A stretch of 39,091 nucleotides of DNA from Escherichia phage vB_EcoP_LNA5, in the sequence record MZ311861.1; one strand, 5' to 3'. A program made the position numbers and the translations under genes. Of the stretch, positions 4,760-38,568 are shown piece by piece (the stretch's first letter is position 1; every line of letters starts with the position of its first letter). The notes under the pieces were generated by a model. It saw only the letters and a program-made list of their open reading frames with translations, was not told where the DNA came from and did not search any database.

Positions 4760-6463
<1,704 letters not shown>

Positions 6464-6474
6464 TCACTCCTTAG

Positions 6475-6553
6475 TGGCGTCTCCACGGGGATTCGAACCC
6501 TAATCGCAATAGGCCATCACGACCCGCCGCTCTACCGTTTGAGCTATGGAGAC
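6475..6553 (-). ncRNA. tRNA-like element (pseudo-tRNA?): canonical acceptor stem, D-arm, T-loop and encoded CCA, but no foldable anticodon arm
   Basis: Minus strand GTCTCCA-TA-GCTCAAACGGTAGAGC-..-TTCGAAT-..-TGGAGAC-G-CCA: perfect 7-bp acceptor stem, D-arm GCTC/GAGC with GG, T-loop TTCGAAT. The 26 nt between the D and T arms do not form a 5-bp stem with a U33/R37 loop by hand folding. Confidence 0.35.
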
Positions 6554-6601
6554 ATTTCTTAATCTCAAATGCGAACAAAGGGACAAGACTCGTGGTCTCA
6601 T

Positions 6602-6620
6602 CCCTACGGTGATAGTTTAG
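6602..6620 (-). promoter_or_regulatory. variant phage promoter (CACCGTAGG core; phi3.8/4 position)
   Basis: ccctacggtgatagtttag: two substitutions at -4/-3 relative to the window consensus; overlaps the lysozyme stop as other copies overlap upstream gene ends. Confidence 0.45.
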
Positions 6621-7075
6621 CCTCGGTCGGAAGTGACCAGTTCATTGGTAGACAGCCAGCGTTGCAAGTCGAAACTTGGACACGCCTTTGGTGCTACGTC
6701 ATGATGTGCTTTGATTTCTGCCTGAGGATACAAGTCCTTCAGGTCAGCCAGCTTGTTGCGCAGGGAGTTCATCTGGGCCGGAGTGAAGTTAGCTTCAAAC
6801 TTGCCCTTAGCGTCAATTCCACCTACAAGGCAGACGCCTACAGACCGTGAGTTCCAGTCCTTAACGTGTGACCCTACGACATTGACCGGGCGTCCCTCTT
6901 CCACAGTGCCATCGCGCTTGATGATAAAGTGGTAGCCTACGTCCAGCCAGCCTTGCTGCTTGTGCCACATACGGATGGTCTCTACCCCGATGTCCATCTC
7001 TGGCTTGGTAGCCGAACAGTGAACGAAGATAGCGTCGGTCCGGGACCGTGGATTGAACTGTACCTTACTTACCAT
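6617..7075 (-). CDS. N-acetylmuramoyl-L-alanine amidase / T7-type lysozyme gp3.5
   Basis: Recalled similarity to T7 lysozyme (..TDAIFVHCSATKP.., ..GWLDVGYHFIIKRDGTVE.., ..HHDVAPKACPSFD.., C-terminal NELVTSDRG). Confidence 0.95.
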   Translation of the reverse strand: MVSKVQFNPRSRTDAIFVHCSATKPEMDIGVETIRMWHKQQGWLDVGYHFIIKRDGTVEEGRPVNVVGSHVKDWNSRSVGVCLVGGIDAKGKFEANFTPAQMNSLRNKLADLKDLYPQAEIKAHHDVAPKACPSFDLQRWLSTNELVTSDRG

Positions 7076-9803: not shown

Positions 9804-9833
9804 GTCGGCCTCCTTAGGTCGAGTTATGGTTGT

Positions 9834-9851
9834 CCTATAGTGATAGCTTAG
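9834..9851 (-). promoter_or_regulatory. phage RNAP promoter (phi1.5/1.6 position)
   Basis: cctatagtgatagcttag, one mismatch to the window consensus. Confidence 0.8.
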
Positions 9852-9887
9852 GGTCTAACTGGTGGCCCAGACGATAGCTTGCTAGCA

Positions 9888-11478: not shown

Positions 11479-11520
11479 TAATCATGAAGGCCACGACTTT
11501 GAGTCATGACCTTGAGTCTA
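11479..11520 (-). promoter_or_regulatory. RNase III-like processing hairpin, class A (R1.1 position)
   Basis: TAGACTCAAGGTCATGACTCAAAGTCGTGGCCTTCATGATTAA on the minus strand; lies between the phi1.1-position promoter and gene 1.1, as recalled for T7. Confidence 0.6.
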
Positions 11521-11522
11521 AT

Positions 11523-11540
11523 CCTATAGTGATAGTTTAG
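11523..11540 (-). promoter_or_regulatory. phage RNAP promoter (phi1.1 position)
   Basis: cctatagtgatagtttag exact consensus. Confidence 0.85.
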
Positions 11541-11541
11541 G

Positions 11542-14830: not shown

Positions 14831-14842
14831 TAGACCTTTAGT

Positions 14843-14860
14843 CCTATAGTGATAGTTAAG
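14843..14860 (-). promoter_or_regulatory. phage RNAP promoter immediately upstream of the RNAP gene
   Basis: cctatagtgatagttaag; about 75 bp upstream of the gene 1 ATG. Confidence 0.8.
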
Positions 14861-14866
14861 TCAGAA

Positions 14867-18077: not shown

Positions 18078-18260
18078 ATGCTACATACCTCCTGTATCTA
18101 TGGTCGGTGACTATCTGTATTGGAGGGATTATGATTAATATCACCCTCCTTCCATCGGTGCAAGCCTTAGGTAAGAACTCGAAGTCTTCCTCCTAAGGTC
18201 TTGCATAAAGTCTGCATATGTATATTCACTACAGTAATACTATAAGTAACCGGGGGTCTT

Positions 18261-18279
18261 CCCTATAGTGATAGTTAAG
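18261..18279 (-). promoter_or_regulatory. phage RNAP promoter (phi-OR position)
   Basis: ccctatagtgatagttaag, about 95 bp past the large terminase stop. Confidence 0.8.
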
Positions 18280-18374
18280 TCCAAACTCCTTGTAAAACAG
18301 TATGTTAGACTGGTAGTAACTATAGGTTACTAACTGCTTATTCATGCAGCTTTCACCTATAGTTATTCATTCAG

Positions 18375-23465: not shown

Positions 23466-23515
23466 TATGCCTCCTTTGTGATTTAAACGGAGACCTATGG
23501 TAGCGCCTCCAGTTT

Positions 23516-23533
23516 CCTATAGTGATAGTTTAG
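23516..23533 (-). promoter_or_regulatory. phage RNAP promoter (phi17 position)
   Basis: cctatagtgatagtttag, overlapping the gp16 stop and about 50 bp upstream of the gene 17 ATG. Confidence 0.85.
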
Positions 23534-26500
23534 TCCTTGATGTGGATGCCCTGCTCCTCAAACGTTCCAAGCAGCAACTTCTGGGTAATCGGGTCATTCG
23601 GTACAAGTTCACGGAACGTGTTATACATCCCGGTCATGTAGTCTCGCTCGTTGACACGGGTATCAGCCTTGAGGTATCCCGCCAAGTTGTAAGCCGTCGC
23701 ACCAACGTTAGCAGCATAGCCGAAAGCCGGGACCTGCTCAAGGAAGTTGCCGACAACATTCATTACCGGACCACTGGAAGCAGCACCAAAGGCGATTGGC
23801 TTCTCCGTCTTCTCGGTAGGTGATCGCGGAAGGATTGACGAGCGGAGCATCTTAGTGTCCTCATATCCAGCGATGCCTCCCAGAATGTTGGCGACCCCAA
23901 GAGGACCACCTAAGTGGGAGCTACGGGACAGCGCCGCATAGCCAATCATTGTTGGGTTAAGGGCTTGCTTCAGATACTCTCGGTCACGACCGTCCTGCAT
24001 AGCGTAAGCCTTTATGTGCGCCTGAGCCATGTAGTACATTCCAGCCAGACCCATAGACATAACCGTTGATAGCGCAGCGTCCATAGCTCGGTTGTTCTTG
24101 GTGGCATTGTAGAAGGTACGCATGGTTCGACCGTTGATAGACTTGATAACGAAGTTCTTAAACTGCAAGACAGTCTTCGCTATCGGACCATAAGCCTTGG
24201 CGTCCATGTTGCTCAGCTTGTGGGGGCGGAGCAGGGTCTCATCAGCGATGGTGTCACCCATACGCCAGAGGTCCATAGCCCTTGGGTCCTGACTGAACGC
24301 CTTCTTATCCTTGATGGTGTACTTCCCGTCTGGACCACGAGTCACTGACTCACGGATTAGGGACTTAATGCCCTTCCACTGCTCGTCAGAGATACCAGCG
24401 GTCTTCAGCCAGCGGTCATCGAACTTACGCTTACTACCAGTCAGGCTATGCTCCACGATGTCAGACAGGAAGCCCTGACGTCCAGCATCTAACAGGTAGT
24501 TGGTCGTACCGTTGAGGACTTTAGTGAACGGAGAGCGTACTGCAAGTTCGCCAGTGTAATACTTGGCAGTCCCCAGAGCTGTAGCTGTACCACGACCGAG
24601 GTCACTGTAAGATCGCAGACGGTCAATGACATCCTGTTTAGACGGACGGATTGAGTCATCCAGTTCCTTACCGAAGATAACATTGTGCAGGTCCTTAATC
24701 TCTGAGGCCCCAACCTTCTTGTTACGGAAGGCTAGGTCACGGAAAATTGGGACTCCATGAAGCATTGCACGAACGTTACCACGAGCCAGCATACCACCAA
24801 TCTCCGTTAAGTTCTGAACACCCATGTAGGCATTCTTAGCGAAGAACGATAGGTCTGTCATTGTGCGCATCACGGTAGCGAAGGCCGCATCATCAGCACC
24901 ATCACGTCGAGCACGACCAGTTAGAATCTTCAAAGTGTCACGTAAGGTAGATACTTCACCTTTCAACTTACCGTCATCCCCAGCCTTGTTCATCAGGGTC
25001 TCAACCAAGTCCTTCATGTCCTTCGTGGTCTTGCCTGTACCAGCCATGATAGCAATATCGCCATTAACTCGACGGTTGTAGGCCGGGACAATCTTGTCCA
25101 TGTCCCACTCACGCAGGTTGTTGACACTGAAGGTCTGACCGTTAGGTAGGACGATTGACATATCGCTATCGAACAGGTTACGAGCCTCAAGGAAGCTGTT
25201 GTTCTCCAGACCCACCAGACCATTGATGTTCTCTTCCATTACGGATGAACGCTCGAACTGCTCGGTGTGAGAGATACCATAAGCCTTATCGTTGGCGTAC
25301 TTATCAACCGCAGCCGCAAGTCCTTCTGGAGTCAACGTAGGGTCAGCCTCTAAGAGTGCCTCGTCCACACGTTTCTTGACTTCAGGTCGAGACGCATAGC
25401 TGGTCAACCATGACTTCTTGATGGCCTCCTGTAGTGCCTCTGGACTCCCAAGCTCCTTGATGTACAGCTCCTTCATCTGGTTGCTATACACATGCGGGAC
25501 GTATGTTCCCTTGAAGCGGCTACCCGGAAAGATAGACTGAGCGTCTGGGCGACCAAACATCGCCGGGTTCTCCATCATCTCACGCTTGGCGTCAAACTGG
25601 TTCTTCAGCAGGTCATAGACTTTCAGTTCTCCCGGAGTCAATTCAGCCTTCAGGTTTCCGCTACCATCTTCGATAGCCATAGACACGCGCTGATAGATGT
25701 CTTGACGGAATGCGCCAGAGTCTCGCCAGAATGCTGTCTGGAAGTACGGGTCCTTTAGTGCCTCAGTAACCGCATCGTCGATGTCATTGTAGAACCGATG
25801 GTCCACAGCACGAAGTCTCTCGAATACGTCTGACGCAGTTGTCCCTATTTTACCTGAGGCCCCAGACTGCATACCAGTCGGTGAACGTACTAAGTCAGCA
25901 GCTACTCCACGAATCTCAGGGTTCTCGGACCGAAGCAGCTTCAGGCCAATCTCAGTCAGCCCACCAAGGTTCACACCAGCAGCGGCACGTTCAGGCTCAA
26001 TCACTTCGTCAAAGACTTTACGTGTCTTAGGGTTCAGAGGATTCTCACCAATCAGGATTGAACCATCTTCCAGTCGTACACTACCCGGCTCGTTCGGAAC
26101 GTCTGCGAACTTAACACCTTGATGACTAAAGGTCTCCTCTCCTTCACGGATTGGCATACGCGACAGGTCCTGACCATCAACATTACGTGCAGTCTCACGG
26201 GCTTCCAGACGTGTGGCTGGTCCGGCGAACTCGTTGGTTGACTTGCCTAAGGCCTTGCCGATAGCGTCCCCGATAGCTGTCATTCCCCCACCGAAGAGAG
26301 CACCGCCCATAATTGCCTCAGCCACATGAGCGTCCCCACCAGCAACTGAGGTTCGAGCAATCTCGGATGCCCCAGCCATAGCACCAGACTGAGCAGCCAC
26401 AGTGAACATCTTGTTGACTAGCTTCCCACCTTTACCTACCTGCCCAGCAATAGGAACGTAGGTCAGAGGGTCCACGCCAGCACCAATCACACCAGCCGCC

Positions 26501-31187: not shown

Positions 31188-31219
31188 AAAGTCTCCTTAT
31201 AACCTTAAGGGCCTATAGT

Positions 31220-31238
31220 CCCTATAGTGATAGTTAAG
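31220..31238 (-). promoter_or_regulatory. phage RNAP promoter (phi13 position), flanked by a 12-bp inverted repeat
   Basis: ccctatagtgatagttaag; flanked by aagggcctatag (31207..31218) and ctataggccctt (31245..31256). Confidence 0.85.
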
Positions 31239-31263
31239 GTAAATCTATAGGCCCTTCAATAAG

Positions 31264-33621
31264 TTAGACGGAACGAGCTTTCTTAGCGTATGACGCCTCC
31301 CAGCCACACCCAACGATGGACACCGGGGTAGGATAGTCGGACTCTAAGGTTAGACTCGTGGTTAATGCGTTACCATTCATAGCGAAGCGATACTGACCGT
31401 CACCAATGTTGGTAGTCCCAATGGTCTGCTGACCAAGGGTGTACCCATTAAAGGTATTCACGAACTCCCGCTCACCGTTTCTGACAATGAGTCTAAGAGC
31501 GCCAGTGTCCTTGTAGTTGACCCAAGCCCGACGAAGTTGTAGACGACCAGTGTCTTCAGACTGAGTGCCACTCTCGTCTTCAATCTTAATCAGGAACCGT
31601 GAGAACTTGTAGGACATCAGATAAGACCGTCCGATGAACACTGTACGTCCTGACCAATCACCATTGAGTACAGCCACAGTTGAGATGTCGGTCAATTCAC
31701 CAAGGTCCACGTAGGCACCCTGACTGTCAATCAGATAGTACCTACCGGGAGACGGAGCGTTTCCACCATAAGCAGAACCAATGTCAACCGTAGTCTTATA
31801 GGTGTCAGCGTTGTATGAGCCAATTGGGATTACCATAGACACCTTGGAGTCAACGTGGAGTCTATATGGCTCTAACGGAAAGTCAGTTGCCTCCTTGATG
31901 AACTTAAGGTGCTCAAGGTCCACGCCGCCTTGGTGCTGACGAACAATGAACATGGTAGAGCCAATCGACGCAGACGCCAGAATCTTATCAGCTTTAGGGA
32001 ACTCCCAGTGCGACCAAGAGGCTTGAAGCTGTACGCCGTCCTTAAACAAGAACTTGTAGAGGTAGATTCGGTTGTATGCACCTGTAGAGTTGACGCAGAT
32101 GTAGTTCTCAGTCCCTGTCCCCTGAATGTCAAACACCCCGTTAGGGATATAGGACAGTACGTGACCAGTGGTATCATCGGCATCCTTCACGTCAGACACA
32201 TCTGCTACAGCGAAGTATCGCTTAATGCTGGTGAATGACCCACGAGGCGCTGAGAAGAAGACTGAGCGTCCTACAGCGAACGGTCTGGCATTATCTCCTA
32301 AAGCAAACTCTGAGCCTACATCAAGCTGGATAGACTTCGAGGTAAGGACCCCAGAGCTTGTCATCACGAACTGCACCTCATCCGACCAAAGTAGTAGCTG
32401 CTCGCTAAACGGAACGGCATACTTAAGGATTGAGATTCTAGGATGACTTACAGCTACGTCAATAGGATCATCATCACTCAGTGTAGCCACACTCTTAGGG
32501 AAGAACGCAAAGTAGCTGGCTGAACGGCTCATGATTACGTTCTCGCCTGACAAGAACCCCAGCCTATTCCTGTAGAAGAACACATCGTTAATCGTAGCAT
32601 CCACGAAGCTAGGCATAGGGTTTGTGTCATCATTACCAGCACCACGATTAGACCAGTCCAGAGTCTTGAACTCAAAGGAGCCGTCAGATTGTCTCACCAG
32701 AGCATGAGGCATTGTGGTGTTATCGAACCCAGTGACCACTCCCGGCTCTACTGTCTCCTTCCACGTCTTAGTGTTGGAGTCATACATCACGTAATATTCA
32801 TCGGCGCTACTGTTGGTCTCACCTTGAATCTTAATGATGTACCCATTTGGAGCTGCAAGAGGCAACTTAGAGATTGTTTGCACCGTGTCGAGTACTGGGC
32901 TGATTAGCTGGTTAGCATAGCCATCCTCCGTCTCCACTGAGTTAATGTCAGTCCCTGAAGGGGCAGTGATTAACAGGAATCCAGACCCAAGGTCGAACGT
33001 GAAGGTAGGGTAAGCAGCAACAAGAAGGTCTCTCAGAGCTGCACCGATTGCTTGAGCGTCCACCTTAGGTGGGTCATTCTCGGCATCATTACCTGCTGGT
33101 AGCTTATGCGAGACCTTAACGCCACCGTTGATTCCCACCTTAAGGGTTCGACCATACTGTCCGCCACGCAGGTTAATTAAAGCTCGTGCTTTGCGGTTAT
33201 AACCAGAGTGTGACTTCTCGCTTCCACCTTTAACGACAACCTTACGGTTCACGATGAACGTATAGTCTGCAACAGTAACGACACGGATGTCATCTCGCGG
33301 GTTGGACGACTTAACGTAATCTACCGCACCGGAAACTGAGTATTGATTACCACTCAAGTCAACTACCTGAATGTTTGACCCGTTGAACACGATGTAATAC
33401 TGCTCATGCTCGTCACGGTTAATCAGGTGGAACTTAGGGTTGCTCCCAACGTCGATGTTAAGACGTCTCTTGAAGACTGTAGGTGGACGCTTCTGTAGGC
33501 CATCACTCTCTGATGACCAGCAGTTTACCTGTTCCTCGCCTTGGTCCGAGAACCTCAGGATGTCTGGCTGCTGGCTAATGCCACCTTTAAGGTTCTTGAT
33601 TGATTGAGTAATTAGTGGCAT
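31264..33621 (-). CDS. tail tubular protein B gp12
   Basis: Recalled collinear similarity to T7 gp12 (M.LI.QSIKNLKGGISQQPDILR.., ..HLINRDEHEQYY.VF.GS.I.V.DLSGN.., ..RLQLRRAWVNY.., ..IIGCGWE..Y); AAGGAGGG upstream. Confidence 0.95.
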   Translation of the reverse strand: MPLITQSIKNLKGGISQQPDILRFSDQGEEQVNCWSSESDGLQKRPPTVFKRRLNIDVGSNPKFHLINRDEHEQYYIVFNGSNIQVVDLSGNQYSVSGAVDYVKSSNPRDDIRVVTVADYTFIVNRKVVVKGGSEKSHSGYNRKARALINLRGGQYGRTLKVGINGGVKVSHKLPAGNDAENDPPKVDAQAIGAALRDLLVAAYPTFTFDLGSGFLLITAPSGTDINSVETEDGYANQLISPVLDTVQTISKLPLAAPNGYIIKIQGETNSSADEYYVMYDSNTKTWKETVEPGVVTGFDNTTMPHALVRQSDGSFEFKTLDWSNRGAGNDDTNPMPSFVDATINDVFFYRNRLGFLSGENVIMSRSASYFAFFPKSVATLSDDDPIDVAVSHPRISILKYAVPFSEQLLLWSDEVQFVMTSSGVLTSKSIQLDVGSEFALGDNARPFAVGRSVFFSAPRGSFTSIKRYFAVADVSDVKDADDTTGHVLSYIPNGVFDIQGTGTENYICVNSTGAYNRIYLYKFLFKDGVQLQASWSHWEFPKADKILASASIGSTMFIVRQHQGGVDLEHLKFIKEATDFPLEPYRLHVDSKVSMVIPIGSYNADTYKTTVDIGSAYGGNAPSPGRYYLIDSQGAYVDLGELTDISTVAVLNGDWSGRTVFIGRSYLMSYKFSRFLIKIEDESGTQSEDTGRLQLRRAWVNYKDTGALRLIVRNGEREFVNTFNGYTLGQQTIGTTNIGDGQYRFAMNGNALTTSLTLESDYPTPVSIVGCGWEASYAKKARSV

Positions 33622-33630
33622 AGGCCCTCC

Positions 33631-33858
33631 TTAAATCATACTCATTAGGACGTATCCCTCAGCGATGTCACCAACGTCAGCAATGTGGACAACCTTACGT
33701 GCTACCTGTTGTCCAGTATACCCGTTGTCCCACTCATTCAGGATAAGCCAGTCGCCAACCTTAAAGTCCCGGTCGTTAAGTCTCAGCTCTGCTGTCTTTA
33801 GACCCAGTTGTACCGGACCAAAGTGCTGGCGGTGAATCTTCAGGTTGTGACTAGCCAT
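33631..33858 (-). CDS. DUF3850/ASCH-like small protein inserted between tail tubular genes A and B
   Basis: 75-aa ORF (MASHNLKIHRQHFGPVQLGLKTAELRLNDRDFKVGDWLILNEWD..YTGQQV..V) fits the recalled DUF3850 pattern; GGGAGGG upstream; TAATG overlap with the gp11 stop. Confidence 0.7.
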   Translation of the reverse strand: MASHNLKIHRQHFGPVQLGLKTAELRLNDRDFKVGDWLILNEWDNGYTGQQVARKVVHIADVGDIAEGYVLMSMI

Positions 33859-34424
33859 TAGTCCCTCCCGATGTCGGACATCATGTTGTAGCGACCAGTG
33901 TCCATCTCGTACTCCATCACCTGCTGGTAGAGTTCTGCTTCCTGCTCACGAAGGTACAGTTCAGACTCTGGGCTACCGAAGAACTTAGCGTTGAACTCAC
34001 GGCTAGCCTTGGTAACGATGTAGTCACGGAATACTACAGGCATCTCAGCGAACGGTTTCATCTCCACCAGTTCGACTGTAATTGGTCCAGTGAAGGTCGT
34101 GGACTGAGTGGACAGGTCATAGAGATAGCCCCCCATGTTGCTGTAGTAACTGGTAGCACCAGCAGTCATGACCCGAAGGTAAGACGGCAGGAATCGAATC
34201 CTGTTGTCTTGGACATCAGGCGTCAGGACAGCAGCTTCGTTGATGTTAAAGTTCCAGCCTTTAGCTTGGACCTGACGATTAACACGATGCAGGATACGTT
34301 GAGCGTTCGAGACGTCAGCGTTACCTTCGTCAAGCTGTAGGACTGCTGGTTCACCAATAGCAGCTAACATATCGTTGATGGCATCTAAGTCATCGTTAGC
34401 ATTAAGTGGAATGTATTGAGACAT
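33858..34424 (-). CDS. tail tubular protein A gp11
   Basis: Recalled similarity to T7 gp11 (..L.A.NDILA.IGEP.V..L.., ..A.RIL...NRQ.Q..GW.FNI.E.., ..IVTKASR.FN..FFG.PE.., ..MEYEMD.G.YNM); AAGGAG upstream. Confidence 0.93.
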   Translation of the reverse strand: MSQYIPLNANDDLDAINDMLAAIGEPAVLQLDEGNADVSNAQRILHRVNRQVQAKGWNFNINEAAVLTPDVQDNRIRFLPSYLRVMTAGATSYYSNMGGYLYDLSTQSTTFTGPITVELVEMKPFAEMPVVFRDYIVTKASREFNAKFFGSPESELYLREQEAELYQQVMEYEMDTGRYNMMSDIGRD

Positions 34425-34540: not shown

Positions 34541-34577
34541 AAAAAAACCCCTCAAGCACCCGAAGGCACCCAAGGGG
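34541..34577 (-). terminator. T-phi-like late terminator after the capsid gene
   Basis: Minus strand CCCCTTGGGTGCC-TTCG-GGTGCTTGAGGGG followed by TTTTTTT; closely resembles the recalled T7 T-phi sequence; 7 bp past the 10B stop. Confidence 0.85.
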
Positions 34578-34583
34578 TTTCAA

Positions 34584-34874
34584 TTAGTTTGTGAAAGATA
34601 CGTTGAAGGAACGCACAGGCGTACCGTCATACCCAACAATCACCAGACCTTCCACGCCAGAGGTGGCCTTGAAGTAGAGACTGTTGGTTCTACGGGAGTA
34701 GCTAACACCATCAGGCGTAGTCACCTCAAGCAGCGACCAATCGGTCACATCTGAAAGCTCAGGGAAGTCAACCTTCAGGCTGGTTCCCACCGTAGAACTA
34801 TACGTCTCTAAGGTAGGACCCTCTGTAGAGAGGGCCTTAAAGGTCGTTAACCCGCTGACGCCGCTGTGAAAACC
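34584..34874 (-). CDS. capsid 10B C-terminal extension reached by -1 frameshift from 10A
   Basis: The -1 frame is open from the GGTTTTC heptamer (34868..34874), 19 nt before the 10A stop, to a TAA at 34584; T7 makes 10B by a -1 shift at a comparable site near the end of 10A. Confidence 0.6.
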   Translation of the reverse strand, partial: GFHSGVSGLTTFKALSTEGPTLETYSSTVGTSLKVDFPELSDVTDWSLLEVTTPDGVSYSRRTNSLYFKATSGVEGLVIVGYDGTPVRSFNVSFTN

Positions 34875-35896: not shown

Positions 35897-36001
35897 ATGA
35901 TAATTCTCCTATTCAATTGAAAGATAAAGTTTATTACTTACTGTACGCCCAATCCGTATGGACTGAAGTAATAGGGAAACCTTGAGTCTTTCTCTTGGTC
36001 T

Positions 36002-36020
36002 CCCTATAGTGATAGTTTAG
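36002..36020 (-). promoter_or_regulatory. phage RNAP promoter (phi10 position)
   Basis: ccctatagtgatagtttag, about 105 bp upstream of the capsid ATG. Confidence 0.85.
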
Positions 36021-36022
36021 TC

Positions 36023-36910: not shown

Positions 36911-36985
36911 TGAGTCATTCTCCTTTGATTGAAATGGTAGGAACAACTGGACTAGAAACCTACAAATTGTAGACCAGACGTTGTT

Positions 36986-37003
36986 CCTATAGTGATAGTT
37001 TAG
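36986..37003 (-). promoter_or_regulatory. phage RNAP promoter (phi9 position)
   Basis: cctatagtgatagtttag, overlapping the portal stop. Confidence 0.85.
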
Positions 37004-38568
37004 GCTTGAGCCATGTCCTCACCAGCTCCCTGACCCACAGCAGCACCCATGTTAGCACCAGCAGCAGACGCACCATTGACCACAGCTCCTTGAGCGGATT
37101 GTTCAGCCATGCGTTGCAACTTCTCGTCCTGAGTCAGTAGCAGACCAGCGGTGTCAATGCCTAAGGCATTCAGCAGTCGCAGCTTCAGTGTAGGCAAGTT
37201 AATGTCTGGGTCCTGTTGTAGAGGCTGTAGCCCGGTCATCATGTTGACTGCCTGAGTCAGCTTCTCTAAGTCCTGACCACGACCTAACGCTTCCAGACCA
37301 GTGGAGACCGTAGGCTCTACCGCTTCTTTCGGAAGGTCTGGAATCATGCCAGCAGACTGAAGTTGGTTCATCAGCACACGGACGATAGGCAACTGAAGCT
37401 CTTGTGACTGTACTGAGTACACGCCACCTAAGGTCGCCTCCAGTTCGCCAGCAACATAACGAATCTCTTCAGCAGTGACACGCTCGGCATTACGCTGAAC
37501 AGCACTATTAAGAAGGAAGGCCCAGCCTAAACGTTGCTCGATAGCGTCAGCCACCGACTTAGCAATCGTAAAGTCCTGACCTTTCGTCAGTTGCAGGAAG
37601 TTGATGTCCTCAACTCGACCAGCCACGAACTCACCTGTAGCCGCCTTGTTCAGACGTCTAGGTTGCGTGATACCGTTCGGGTTAACGAGGCCCACCACCT
37701 TGGAGGCTACCTTAGCCATTTTTGTGATAGCTTCTGTAATCGTCTCCAGCGAGTTGAGGTCGCCCAGATACTCCTCGCAGTAAGAACGACCGTAGTCTTC
37801 ACCATCCAGTCGAACCATTCGTACCGGGATGTATGGACATGCAGTCAGCGGGTAGGAACCATCGGTCCCTGTTACCTCAATTCCTTCCACTTCCTCGTAG
37901 CGCAGATACTCGTCGTCCTGACGGTAGATGTGCGTATACACTTCCAGCTCGGTGTCAGGCTCATAGTCGTCTGCATTGAGTTGAGACTTCACGTCTTCCG
38001 GTAGAGCACTGAAAGCTACCTTGTCGAGAGTCACAATCTGCAAGATGTTACCGAACGCATCACGTTGAACAACGTAAGACACTAATCGGTACATCCGCAT
38101 CGGACTGTAAGTACCCTGTTCAGGCTCTGGAATGTAAAGCAGACAGTTACCGGAGACGATAAGCTGCTTCAGAGCTTCGAACAATGGCACACGGAAACTG
38201 TTAGTCTCCATGTAGGCCATCAACACACGCTCGACCATAGCAAGCCCTTCGTCAACACGAGCAGCAGCCTCTGAGTCCTGACTCAAGGTCTTGGCCTCAT
38301 ATTCGGAGACTGTCAGTCGCATCCACGGTGACTGAGGGAATAACGCCAACATCAGCTTTGCAGCCAAGTTGTTCAAGCAGCGAGCACCTACAGCTTGCCA
38401 CGGAGTGGTATATTCAGTAGACGAGTTGTCTGATTCCTTAGGAAACAGTGACGGGATAGTGACAGCAGCACAGTTCTGAGCGCGTGTCTCATATGGCTGT
38501 CTACCGTTCTTCAGTCGGTCATAGACCGCTTTGGCTCCTTCAGCAGCGAACCCTTCACGTTCAGCCAT
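37000..38568 (-). CDS. portal (head-tail connector) protein gp8
   Basis: Recalled collinear similarity to T7 gp8 (MAE.., ..YETRAQNCA..TIPSLFPK.SDN.ST.Y.TPWQAVGAR.LNNLA.KLMLALFP.., ..YRLVSYVVQRDAFGN.LQ.VT.., ..ACPYIP.RMVRLDGE.YGRSY.EEYLGDL.SLE..); AAGGAGG upstream. Confidence 0.97.
   Translation of the reverse strand: MAEREGFAAEGAKAVYDRLKNGRQPYETRAQNCAAVTIPSLFPKESDNSSTEYTTPWQAVGARCLNNLAAKLMLALFPQSPWMRLTVSEYEAKTLSQDSEAAARVDEGLAMVERVLMAYMETNSFRVPLFEALKQLIVSGNCLLYIPEPEQGTYSPMRMYRLVSYVVQRDAFGNILQIVTLDKVAFSALPEDVKSQLNADDYEPDTELEVYTHIYRQDDEYLRYEEVEGIEVTGTDGSYPLTACPYIPVRMVRLDGEDYGRSYCEEYLGDLNSLETITEAITKMAKVASKVVGLVNPNGITQPRRLNKAATGEFVAGRVEDINFLQLTKGQDFTIAKSVADAIEQRLGWAFLLNSAVQRNAERVTAEEIRYVAGELEATLGGVYSVQSQELQLPIVRVLMNQLQSAGMIPDLPKEAVEPTVSTGLEALGRGQDLEKLTQAVNMMTGLQPLQQDPDINLPTLKLRLLNALGIDTAGLLLTQDEKLQRMAEQSAQGAVVNGASAAGANMGAAVGQGAGEDMAQA

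Follow-up and report, generated by a model that had tools for sequence, protein, structure and literature searches.

An optional DUF3850/ASCH gene between tail genes 11 and 12 of Kayfunavirus phages, encoding a predicted minimal PUA-like protein with a possible link to modified bases

Among the described proteins that come closest to the phage protein considered here are several ASCH-type enzymes. YqfB of E. coli, which has an octapeptide of the GKTR type, is an ac4C amidohydrolase with Lys21, Thr24, Arg26 and Glu74 as catalytic residues, and proteins of its type showed no RNA binding (PMC9599836), so that not every member of the superfamily can be taken as a binder of nucleic acid. ASCH proteins with a GKER octapeptide, namely TthASCH, EOLA1, the ASCH domain of TRIP4 and others, are reported to remove ac4C from tRNA, both the Lys and the Glu being essential for this activity (preprint 10.64898/2026.02.27.708502). 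The text of this preprint, which covers 19 tested proteins, includes no DUF3850 member and no phage protein, and the words "phage", "Enterococcus" and "3IUW" are absent from it. Regarding DUF3850 itself, the only solved structure is 3IUW, an 83-aa "activating signal cointegrator" of the EF_1602 type from Enterococcus faecalis that was produced by structural genomics. Our search of the literature on DUF3850 found no functional study, and the sole relevant item was a report of ParB-CTPase-DUF3850 fusions, which show an enrichment in prophages and a link to parA, and for which an anti-defence role has been suggested (PMC12704722).

The gene itself is already known in phages, from the "unknown product" of EcoDS1 (AS9_0040) onward, and more than 150 published phage genomes annotate it. 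It is named 11.05 in Citrobacter phage CR44b and "RNA-binding protein" or "DUF3850 domain-containing protein" in vB_EcoP-U8 (QOI58481), LM33_P1, ST31 and vB_EcoP_F; in EcoDS1 and the last four phages it is the same gene at the same junction, with no material difference from the one described here. It lies between genes 11 and 12, which in T7 are neighbours separated by a 23-nt gap, as the initial annotation of this DNA had stated, and in K1F overlap by TAATG with nothing between them.

The window, i.e., the whole stretch of 39,091 nucleotides analysed here (Escherichia phage vB_EcoP_LNA5, MZ311861.1), belongs to the genus Kayfunavirus (Studiervirinae) and is 100% identical to Escherichia phage vB_EcoP-U8 over a 701-bp query (33400-34100), a region matched by more than 200 phage records. 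Around this region, the minus strand of the window encodes every gene. The upstream neighbour is gp11, tail tubular protein A (33858-34424; Pfam Tube, E 6e-46), and the downstream one is gp12, tail tubular protein B or nozzle (31264-33621; Pfam Phage_nozzle, 1096 bits, E 0). Between them, the open reading frame list gives a 75-aa frame at 33631-33858 with an ATG start and a TAA stop, the stop codon being counted, overlapped by a 56-aa antisense frame. The initial annotation had described a 75-aa frame with a strong ribosome-binding site and TAATG coupling to gp11, and all three elements are present, on the minus strand, which that annotation had left unstated. As read from the sequence and the frame list, the stop codon of gp11 (33858-33860) and the ATG of the DUF3850 gene (33856-33858) have one base in common, which forms the TAATG at 33856-33860 and would couple the two genes translationally. 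The ribosome-binding site GGGAGGG (33863-33869) is located 5 nt before this ATG, within the final codons of gp11 (...DIGRD*), while that of gp12, GGAGGG (33625-33630), occupies the 9-nt gap between the DUF3850 stop and the gp12 start. We are close to certain of the identity of the gene and of this genomic arrangement.

The gp11-DUF3850-gp12 block has no promoter of its own. When the annotated elements of EcoDS1 were used as probes, the nearest upstream promoter was found to be phi10 (35999-36021), a Tphi-type terminator with the same sequence as the one annotated in EcoDS1 was placed upstream of gp11 (34545-34580), and phi13 (31217-31239), downstream of gp12, marked the end of the block, all on the minus strand. 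Transcripts from phi10 must therefore read through Tphi to reach the DUF3850 gene. Genes 11 and 12 of T7 are likewise transcribed by terminator read-through. A literature search for Kayfunavirus transcriptomics, for "CR44b 11.05" and for proteomics of the gene found nothing usable, and it is from the position and layout of the gene that we infer its late expression and its coupling to gp11.

Within the genus, the gene is an optional accessory. A 601-bp probe built on the K1F junction matched 214 records and aligned either in one piece, without the insert, or in two pieces spanning 838 bp, with an insert of 237 bp; among 60 evenly spaced records sampled from these, the insert was present in about 48 (~80%) and absent in 11. 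Records without it include K1F, pO2, YZ1, ZG49, Dev2, GW1, SFPH2 and IME278. T7 also lacks a DUF3850 gene at this junction, as does SH3, whose genes 11 and 12 are separated by 11 nt, and, judging from its ORF numbering and coordinates, so in all probability does SH4. Its absence from K1F, Dev2 and T7 makes the gene dispensable. Where it occurs it is well kept: by tblastn, the protein is 96-100% identical in about 143 phage GenBank records, the frame is retained in more than 150 genomes, and the placement between gp11 and gp12 holds in homologues down to 67% identity.

The initial annotation had also recognised a DUF3850/ASCH pattern in the protein and had named a Pfam search as a way of checking it; database matches now bear this out. 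DUF3850 (PF12961) is matched with 70.1 bits against a gathering cut-off of 22.9 (E 1.9e-19), residues 4-73 covering positions 2-76 of the 77 in the profile, and ASCH (PF04266) with 26.2 bits against a cut-off of 21.2 (E 1.4e-5), matches much too strong to be accidental. Moreover, PHROG 986, labelled "RNA-binding protein", is matched with 123 bits (E 2.8e-35), and the sequence of PDB 3IUW with E 1.2e-10, or 3.7e-19 when a profile is used. The words "RNA-binding" are a label inherited from the superfamily. NCBIfam and PADLOC gave no meaningful match, the sole PADLOC match being insignificant at 14 bits, and Pfam found no nuclease or mobility domain in the protein.

Across 54 diverse DUF3850 members, 17 positions are at least 90% conserved (H4, L6, K7, K21, E24, R26, N28-D36, L40 and E42), and the window protein retains all 17, following the pattern HxLK ... 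KxxExRxNDRDFKVGD ... LxE. Two elements stand out in its translation. The first is GLKTAELR (residues 19-26; 33781-33804, minus strand), which has the form GxKxxExR and agrees with the ASCH octapeptide GxKxx[E/T/S]xR (PF04266; Iyer et al. 2006); its K21, E24 and R26 are invariant in the 54 members. The second is the DUF3850 signature block NDRDFKVGD (residues 28-36; 33751-33777, minus strand), each position of which is 94-100% conserved in the same set. The occurrence of so many invariant charged residues in only 75 aa suggests that they serve ligand binding or catalysis and not a scaffold.

Comparison of the window with 16 related loci shows that the frame is a protein-coding gene under purifying selection, with dN/dS values of 0-0.19. 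In the three most divergent pairs (dS 0.9-1.3) the values are 0.12-0.19, close to the 0.11-0.13 of gp12, and in distant lineages the divergence of the gene follows that of gp12. Two alleles depart from the pattern, with length and position kept. That of CR44b (11.05; locus L093, 1796-2020) is 44% identical to the window protein, scores 26.6 bits on DUF3850 and has lost NDRDF, having SIPEI instead, and that of Pectobacterium phage LET1 (locus L094, 1801-2019) has YDEGY where the motif is expected. This decay suggests a relaxed or altered function in both phages, i.e., a function that may be lost or changed.

The predicted model of the protein has the fold of 3IUW and a PUA-like beta-barrel, although it is least confident at residues 26-28 (pLDDT <50), inside the conserved motif. 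Fold matching placed 3IUW first (11.9), followed by PH0355 (8.1), YqfB (7.7), PF0470 (6.9), ZmASCH (6.6), YTH domains (about 6.4), and EVE and McrB-N domains (4.4-4.7). Each of the described relatives differs from the phage protein in some respect. 3IUW is a bacterial or prophage chromosomal protein and has a Tyr in place of His58 of the phage protein. ZmASCH, an ssRNA-specific ribonuclease of Zymomonas mobilis (PDB 5GUQ), is about 9% identical and has 143 aa with extra helices. The YqfB and ASCH ac4C erasers are about 19% identical and have 103-121 aa or more, compared with 75 aa; DUF3850 is thus about 30-45 residues shorter than YqfB (103 aa) and TthASCH (121 aa), and it lacks the helical insert that carries Glu74 of YqfB. 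Conversely, compared with these erasers the phage protein has the additional invariant NDRDFKVGD block, which lies outside the ASCH definition.

In a profile alignment, GLKTAELR falls in register with GRKTITIR of YqfB, so that Lys21 and Arg26 are kept and Glu24 replaces the YqfB Thr. A YqfB-type ac4C amidohydrolase is ruled out by the Glu instead of Thr at position 24 and by the lack of a segment equivalent to that with Glu74, the alignment ending at YqfB residue 49. The Lys/Glu dyad of the GKER-type proteins, on the other hand, is present as K21 and E24, both family-invariant, and the phage protein falls into this GKER octapeptide class.

Other phages place the family in a different setting. 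Among 80 IMG/VR loci, 12 homologues, all at least 85% identical, lie between gp11 and gp12 and no others do; the remaining 68, at most 60% identical, have neither gp11 nor gp12 nearby. The homologue of the lambdoid Erwinia phage Midgardsormr38 (65% identity) is in the nin region after the replicative helicase, that of Shigella phage DS8 (60% identity) lies between helicase and primase, a T1-like phage has one among its early genes, and a Listeria phage has one in a replication/recombination module. A scan of 149 neighbouring ORFs from 48 non-redundant loci gave replication initiators, primase/helicase domains, SSB, NinB, Gam and HNH, together with five DNA-modification enzymes (two D12-class adenine methylases, Dam, a C5 methylase and Mom). 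Of the 25 families listed, only a small terminase subunit, matched once, represents late (packaging) functions, and no single conserved partner gene emerged from these 149 ORFs, the common element being a replication, recombination or DNA-modification setting. About half of the homologues carry extensions, in which Pfam found nothing apart from one DnaA C-terminal HTH (DnaA_C). Judging from these neighbourhoods, the usual setting of the family is DNA replication and maintenance, and the position in a tail operon is atypical. The initial annotation had called the placement inside the late operon unusual, which stands for the family and does not for the genus, since the synteny survey finds it in ~80% of Kayfunavirus-like GenBank genomes. 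In addition, T7-like late operons often hold non-structural inserts, such as the endonuclease genes of CR44b and yong1.

These elements can be assembled into a proposed function. The protein would be made late, in amounts tied to gp11, and would act in the cytoplasm rather than in the virion. There, the cleft formed by the K21/E24/R26 octapeptide and the invariant NDRDFKVGD loop would bind a base flipped out of RNA or DNA, for which an N4-modified cytosine is the most plausible candidate, and might hydrolyse it, as the Lys/Glu GKER-type ASCH ac4C deacetylases do. That the protein binds or acts on modified bases of nucleic acids is a possibility, which we advance tentatively, and ac4C as the specific target is unlikely. 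The most detailed version, in which a late minimal ASCH enzyme present in tail-protein-like amounts removes or binds an N4-modified cytosine mark, be it ac4C in the wobble position of host elongator tRNA-Met or a modified base in DNA, and thereby retunes translation or evades a modification-sensing or abortive-infection defence, is speculative and has little probability. Taken as a whole, the account of an accessory gene for a minimal, 75-aa DUF3850 protein with an ASCH/PUA-like beta-barrel and a role of this general kind is somewhat probable.

Another reading is a function in anti-defence proper, in which a late ASCH decoy or enzyme would blunt host immunity, for example if it hid or removed a modified base or acted as a competitor of PUA/ASCH-type sensors. 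The gene is accessory and patchily distributed, as is typical for counter-defence genes; PUA-superfamily domains, ASCH among them, are modification sensors in type IV restriction (PMC12191111), the ASCH-like BapA is a 5hmC DNA glycosylase, and the prophage-enriched ParB-DUF3850 fusions have themselves been proposed to act in anti-defence (PMC12704722). However, PADLOC returned only the insignificant 14-bit match, T7-like anti-defence genes are usually early (0.3, 1.2, 5.5) and not downstream of Tphi, and the strong conservation of the protein contrasts with the diversification of many anti-defence genes. We consider this function rather improbable.

Relative to K1F, the window carries a 237-bp insert (33622-33858, minus strand; delimited by alignment with the K1F junction probe) exactly at the gp12 start, comprising the DUF3850 gene and a new ribosome-binding site and ATG for gp12. 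Its 5' border, GGGAGGGACTAATG, is exactly the ribosome-binding site and start of K1F gp12, and the GGGAGGG of the DUF3850 gene is the same string as the K1F gp12 ribosome-binding site; the inserted gene has thus taken over the translation signals of gp12, gp11 and gp12 themselves being unaltered. The 3' border supplies gp12 with a near-copy, GGAGGGCCTATG, and the flanking repeat GGAGGG(A/C)CT(A)ATG makes the precise position of both borders ambiguous. Such a near-repeat permits either insertion or precise deletion, and the patchy distribution decides neither direction. We infer that the gene may have come from another enterobacterial phage through illegitimate recombination, with ribosome-binding-site/ATG sequences providing the microhomology; its closest relatives outside the group, at 57-65% identity, are found in replication or nin regions. 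Its GC content of 0.496 equals that of the flanks, with no sign of recent foreign origin.

Other small genes have entered the same place. In Hafnia phage yong1, a second gene follows DUF3850 (locus L086, 2040-2480), encoding a 146-aa protein of the Endonuclease_7 family, and its ribosome-binding site and ATG (GGAGGTGATATG) are those of the gp12 start of Dev2; in Enterobacter phage B1, a 158-aa frame, ORF41, follows DUF3850 at the gp11/gp12 junction. As far as these genomes indicate, the junction is a recurrent landing site. The 7.7C gene of CR44b and the yong1 endonuclease gene resemble the DUF3850 gene in being non-structural frames wedged between late genes, in using the ribosome-binding site and ATG of the downstream gene, and in being present or absent among close relatives; Pfam recognises no nuclease or mobility motif in DUF3850, which distinguishes it from free-standing endonucleases. 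Regarding more recent exchange, third-codon-position diversity among 13 close relatives (window 31264-34424 against loci L002-L012 and L086) is 0.070 in the DUF3850 gene, compared with 0.10-0.24 in the flanking 189-bp bins of gp11 and gp12, all of which are higher; this fits spread by recombination. The gp11 allele of the window is unusually divergent from most relatives (dS about 0.5). Together, the low diversity and the divergent allele point to mosaic recombination around the junction.

The gene could be a selfish passenger without benefit to the phage, for instance a remnant or cargo of a mobile cassette of the homing-endonuclease type that targets the gp11/gp12 junction. The additional genes found there in yong1 and B1, the takeover of a gp12 ribosome-binding site and ATG by both the DUF3850 gene and the yong1 endonuclease gene, the low third-position diversity, expected under recent recombinational spread, and the motif decay in CR44b and LET1 would all agree with such an origin. 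Against it, the dN/dS of 0.12-0.19 at dS 0.9-1.3 and a divergence that follows gp12 argue for long co-residence under selection, the GC content is that of the flanks, the protein itself carries neither a nuclease nor a mobility domain, and all family-invariant residues are retained. A passenger of this kind is a doubtful explanation.

The position between gp11 and gp12 might instead reflect a structural role, the protein being a virion or tail-assembly component such as a small tail accessory or an ejected protein. The location of all more distant homologues examined in replication, recombination or DNA-modification modules argues against a role in the tail, as do the homologues of 57-65% identity in the replication or nin modules of unrelated siphoviruses, and K1F, Dev2, SH3 and other phages lacking the gene assemble the same tail. 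The GenBank record of CR44b flags mass-spectrometry matches for gp7.3 (82 aa), 8, 9, 10A, 11, 12, 14, 15, 16, 17 and 17.01, and flags none for 11.05, a weak negative given the divergence of this allele (44% identity); in a virion study of phage B1 of low sensitivity, the protein was not among the six proteins identified from eight gel bands. Fold matches at the Z-5 level are generic small barrels, compared with 6.6-11.9 for the ASCH proteins. We conclude that a virion component is very unlikely, and that the role of the DUF3850 protein is probably non-structural. A chance ORF or mis-annotation, to which the short frame (75 aa) and the overlapping 56-aa antisense ORF might lend some colour, is excluded by the Pfam match (E 1.9e-19) and the excess of synonymous change in the DUF3850 frame, and it is further contradicted by the retention of this frame in more than 150 genomes, the strong ribosome-binding site and the tight packing between the neighbours.

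As a sequence feature, the gene is ordinary: it belongs to an existing Pfam family and is annotated in well over 100 Kayfunavirus genomes. What it offers is a natural experiment, because close relatives differ by exactly a 237-bp cassette at a defined junction (K1F without it, EcoDS1 and U8 with it), and phage pairs differing only in the insert would be easy to build and could yield the first functional assignment for DUF3850. The family is widespread in phage replication modules and occurs in ParB and DnaA-HTH fusions, and recent work connects the wider ASCH superfamily with the erasure of ac4C and the recognition of modified bases. If the most detailed version of the proposed function were true, it would be the first for DUF3850 and would provide the first phage-encoded nucleic-acid-modification "eraser" in the superfamily. 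Moreover, the junction is an example of the entry of small genes into densely packed late operons, in which they take over the ribosome-binding site and start codon of the downstream gene.

Some other features of the window were observed along the way. The 23-nt Kayfunavirus promoter consensus (...AACTATCACTATAGG...) has ten matches, all ten on the minus strand, at 807-829, 6599-6621, 9830-9852, 11519-11541, 14839-14861, 18258-18280, 23512-23534, 31217-31239, 35999-36021 and 36982-37004; from this uniform orientation and the gene order, the window can be recognised as a Kayfunavirus genome in circularly permuted, reverse-complement form. Between capsid gene 10 and the Tphi terminator there is a 68-aa ORF with a GTG start (34584-34790, minus strand), which matches PHROG 7473 (unknown function; E 4e-35) and no Pfam or NCBIfam family, and which has a counterpart in only some close relatives. 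EcoDS1 labels the equivalent stretch "region of similarity to gp10B", so that the ORF may either extend the capsid protein by frameshifting or be a small gene in its own right. Finally, a scan of the whole window with Rfam found no match in or near the DUF3850 gene and only a tRNA-like element elsewhere (6475-6553, minus strand; 36.7 bits against a cut-off of 29), which ARAGORN reads as tRNA-Thr (CGT). The promoter-like site at 6599-6621 lies just upstream of this element, and the primase/helicase gene (4760-6460, minus strand) follows directly downstream. tRNA genes are uncommon in T7-like phages, and the tRNA-like element is kept in 142 phage records, mostly unannotated and in a few cases entered as tRNA-Thr, tRNA-OTHER or pseudo.
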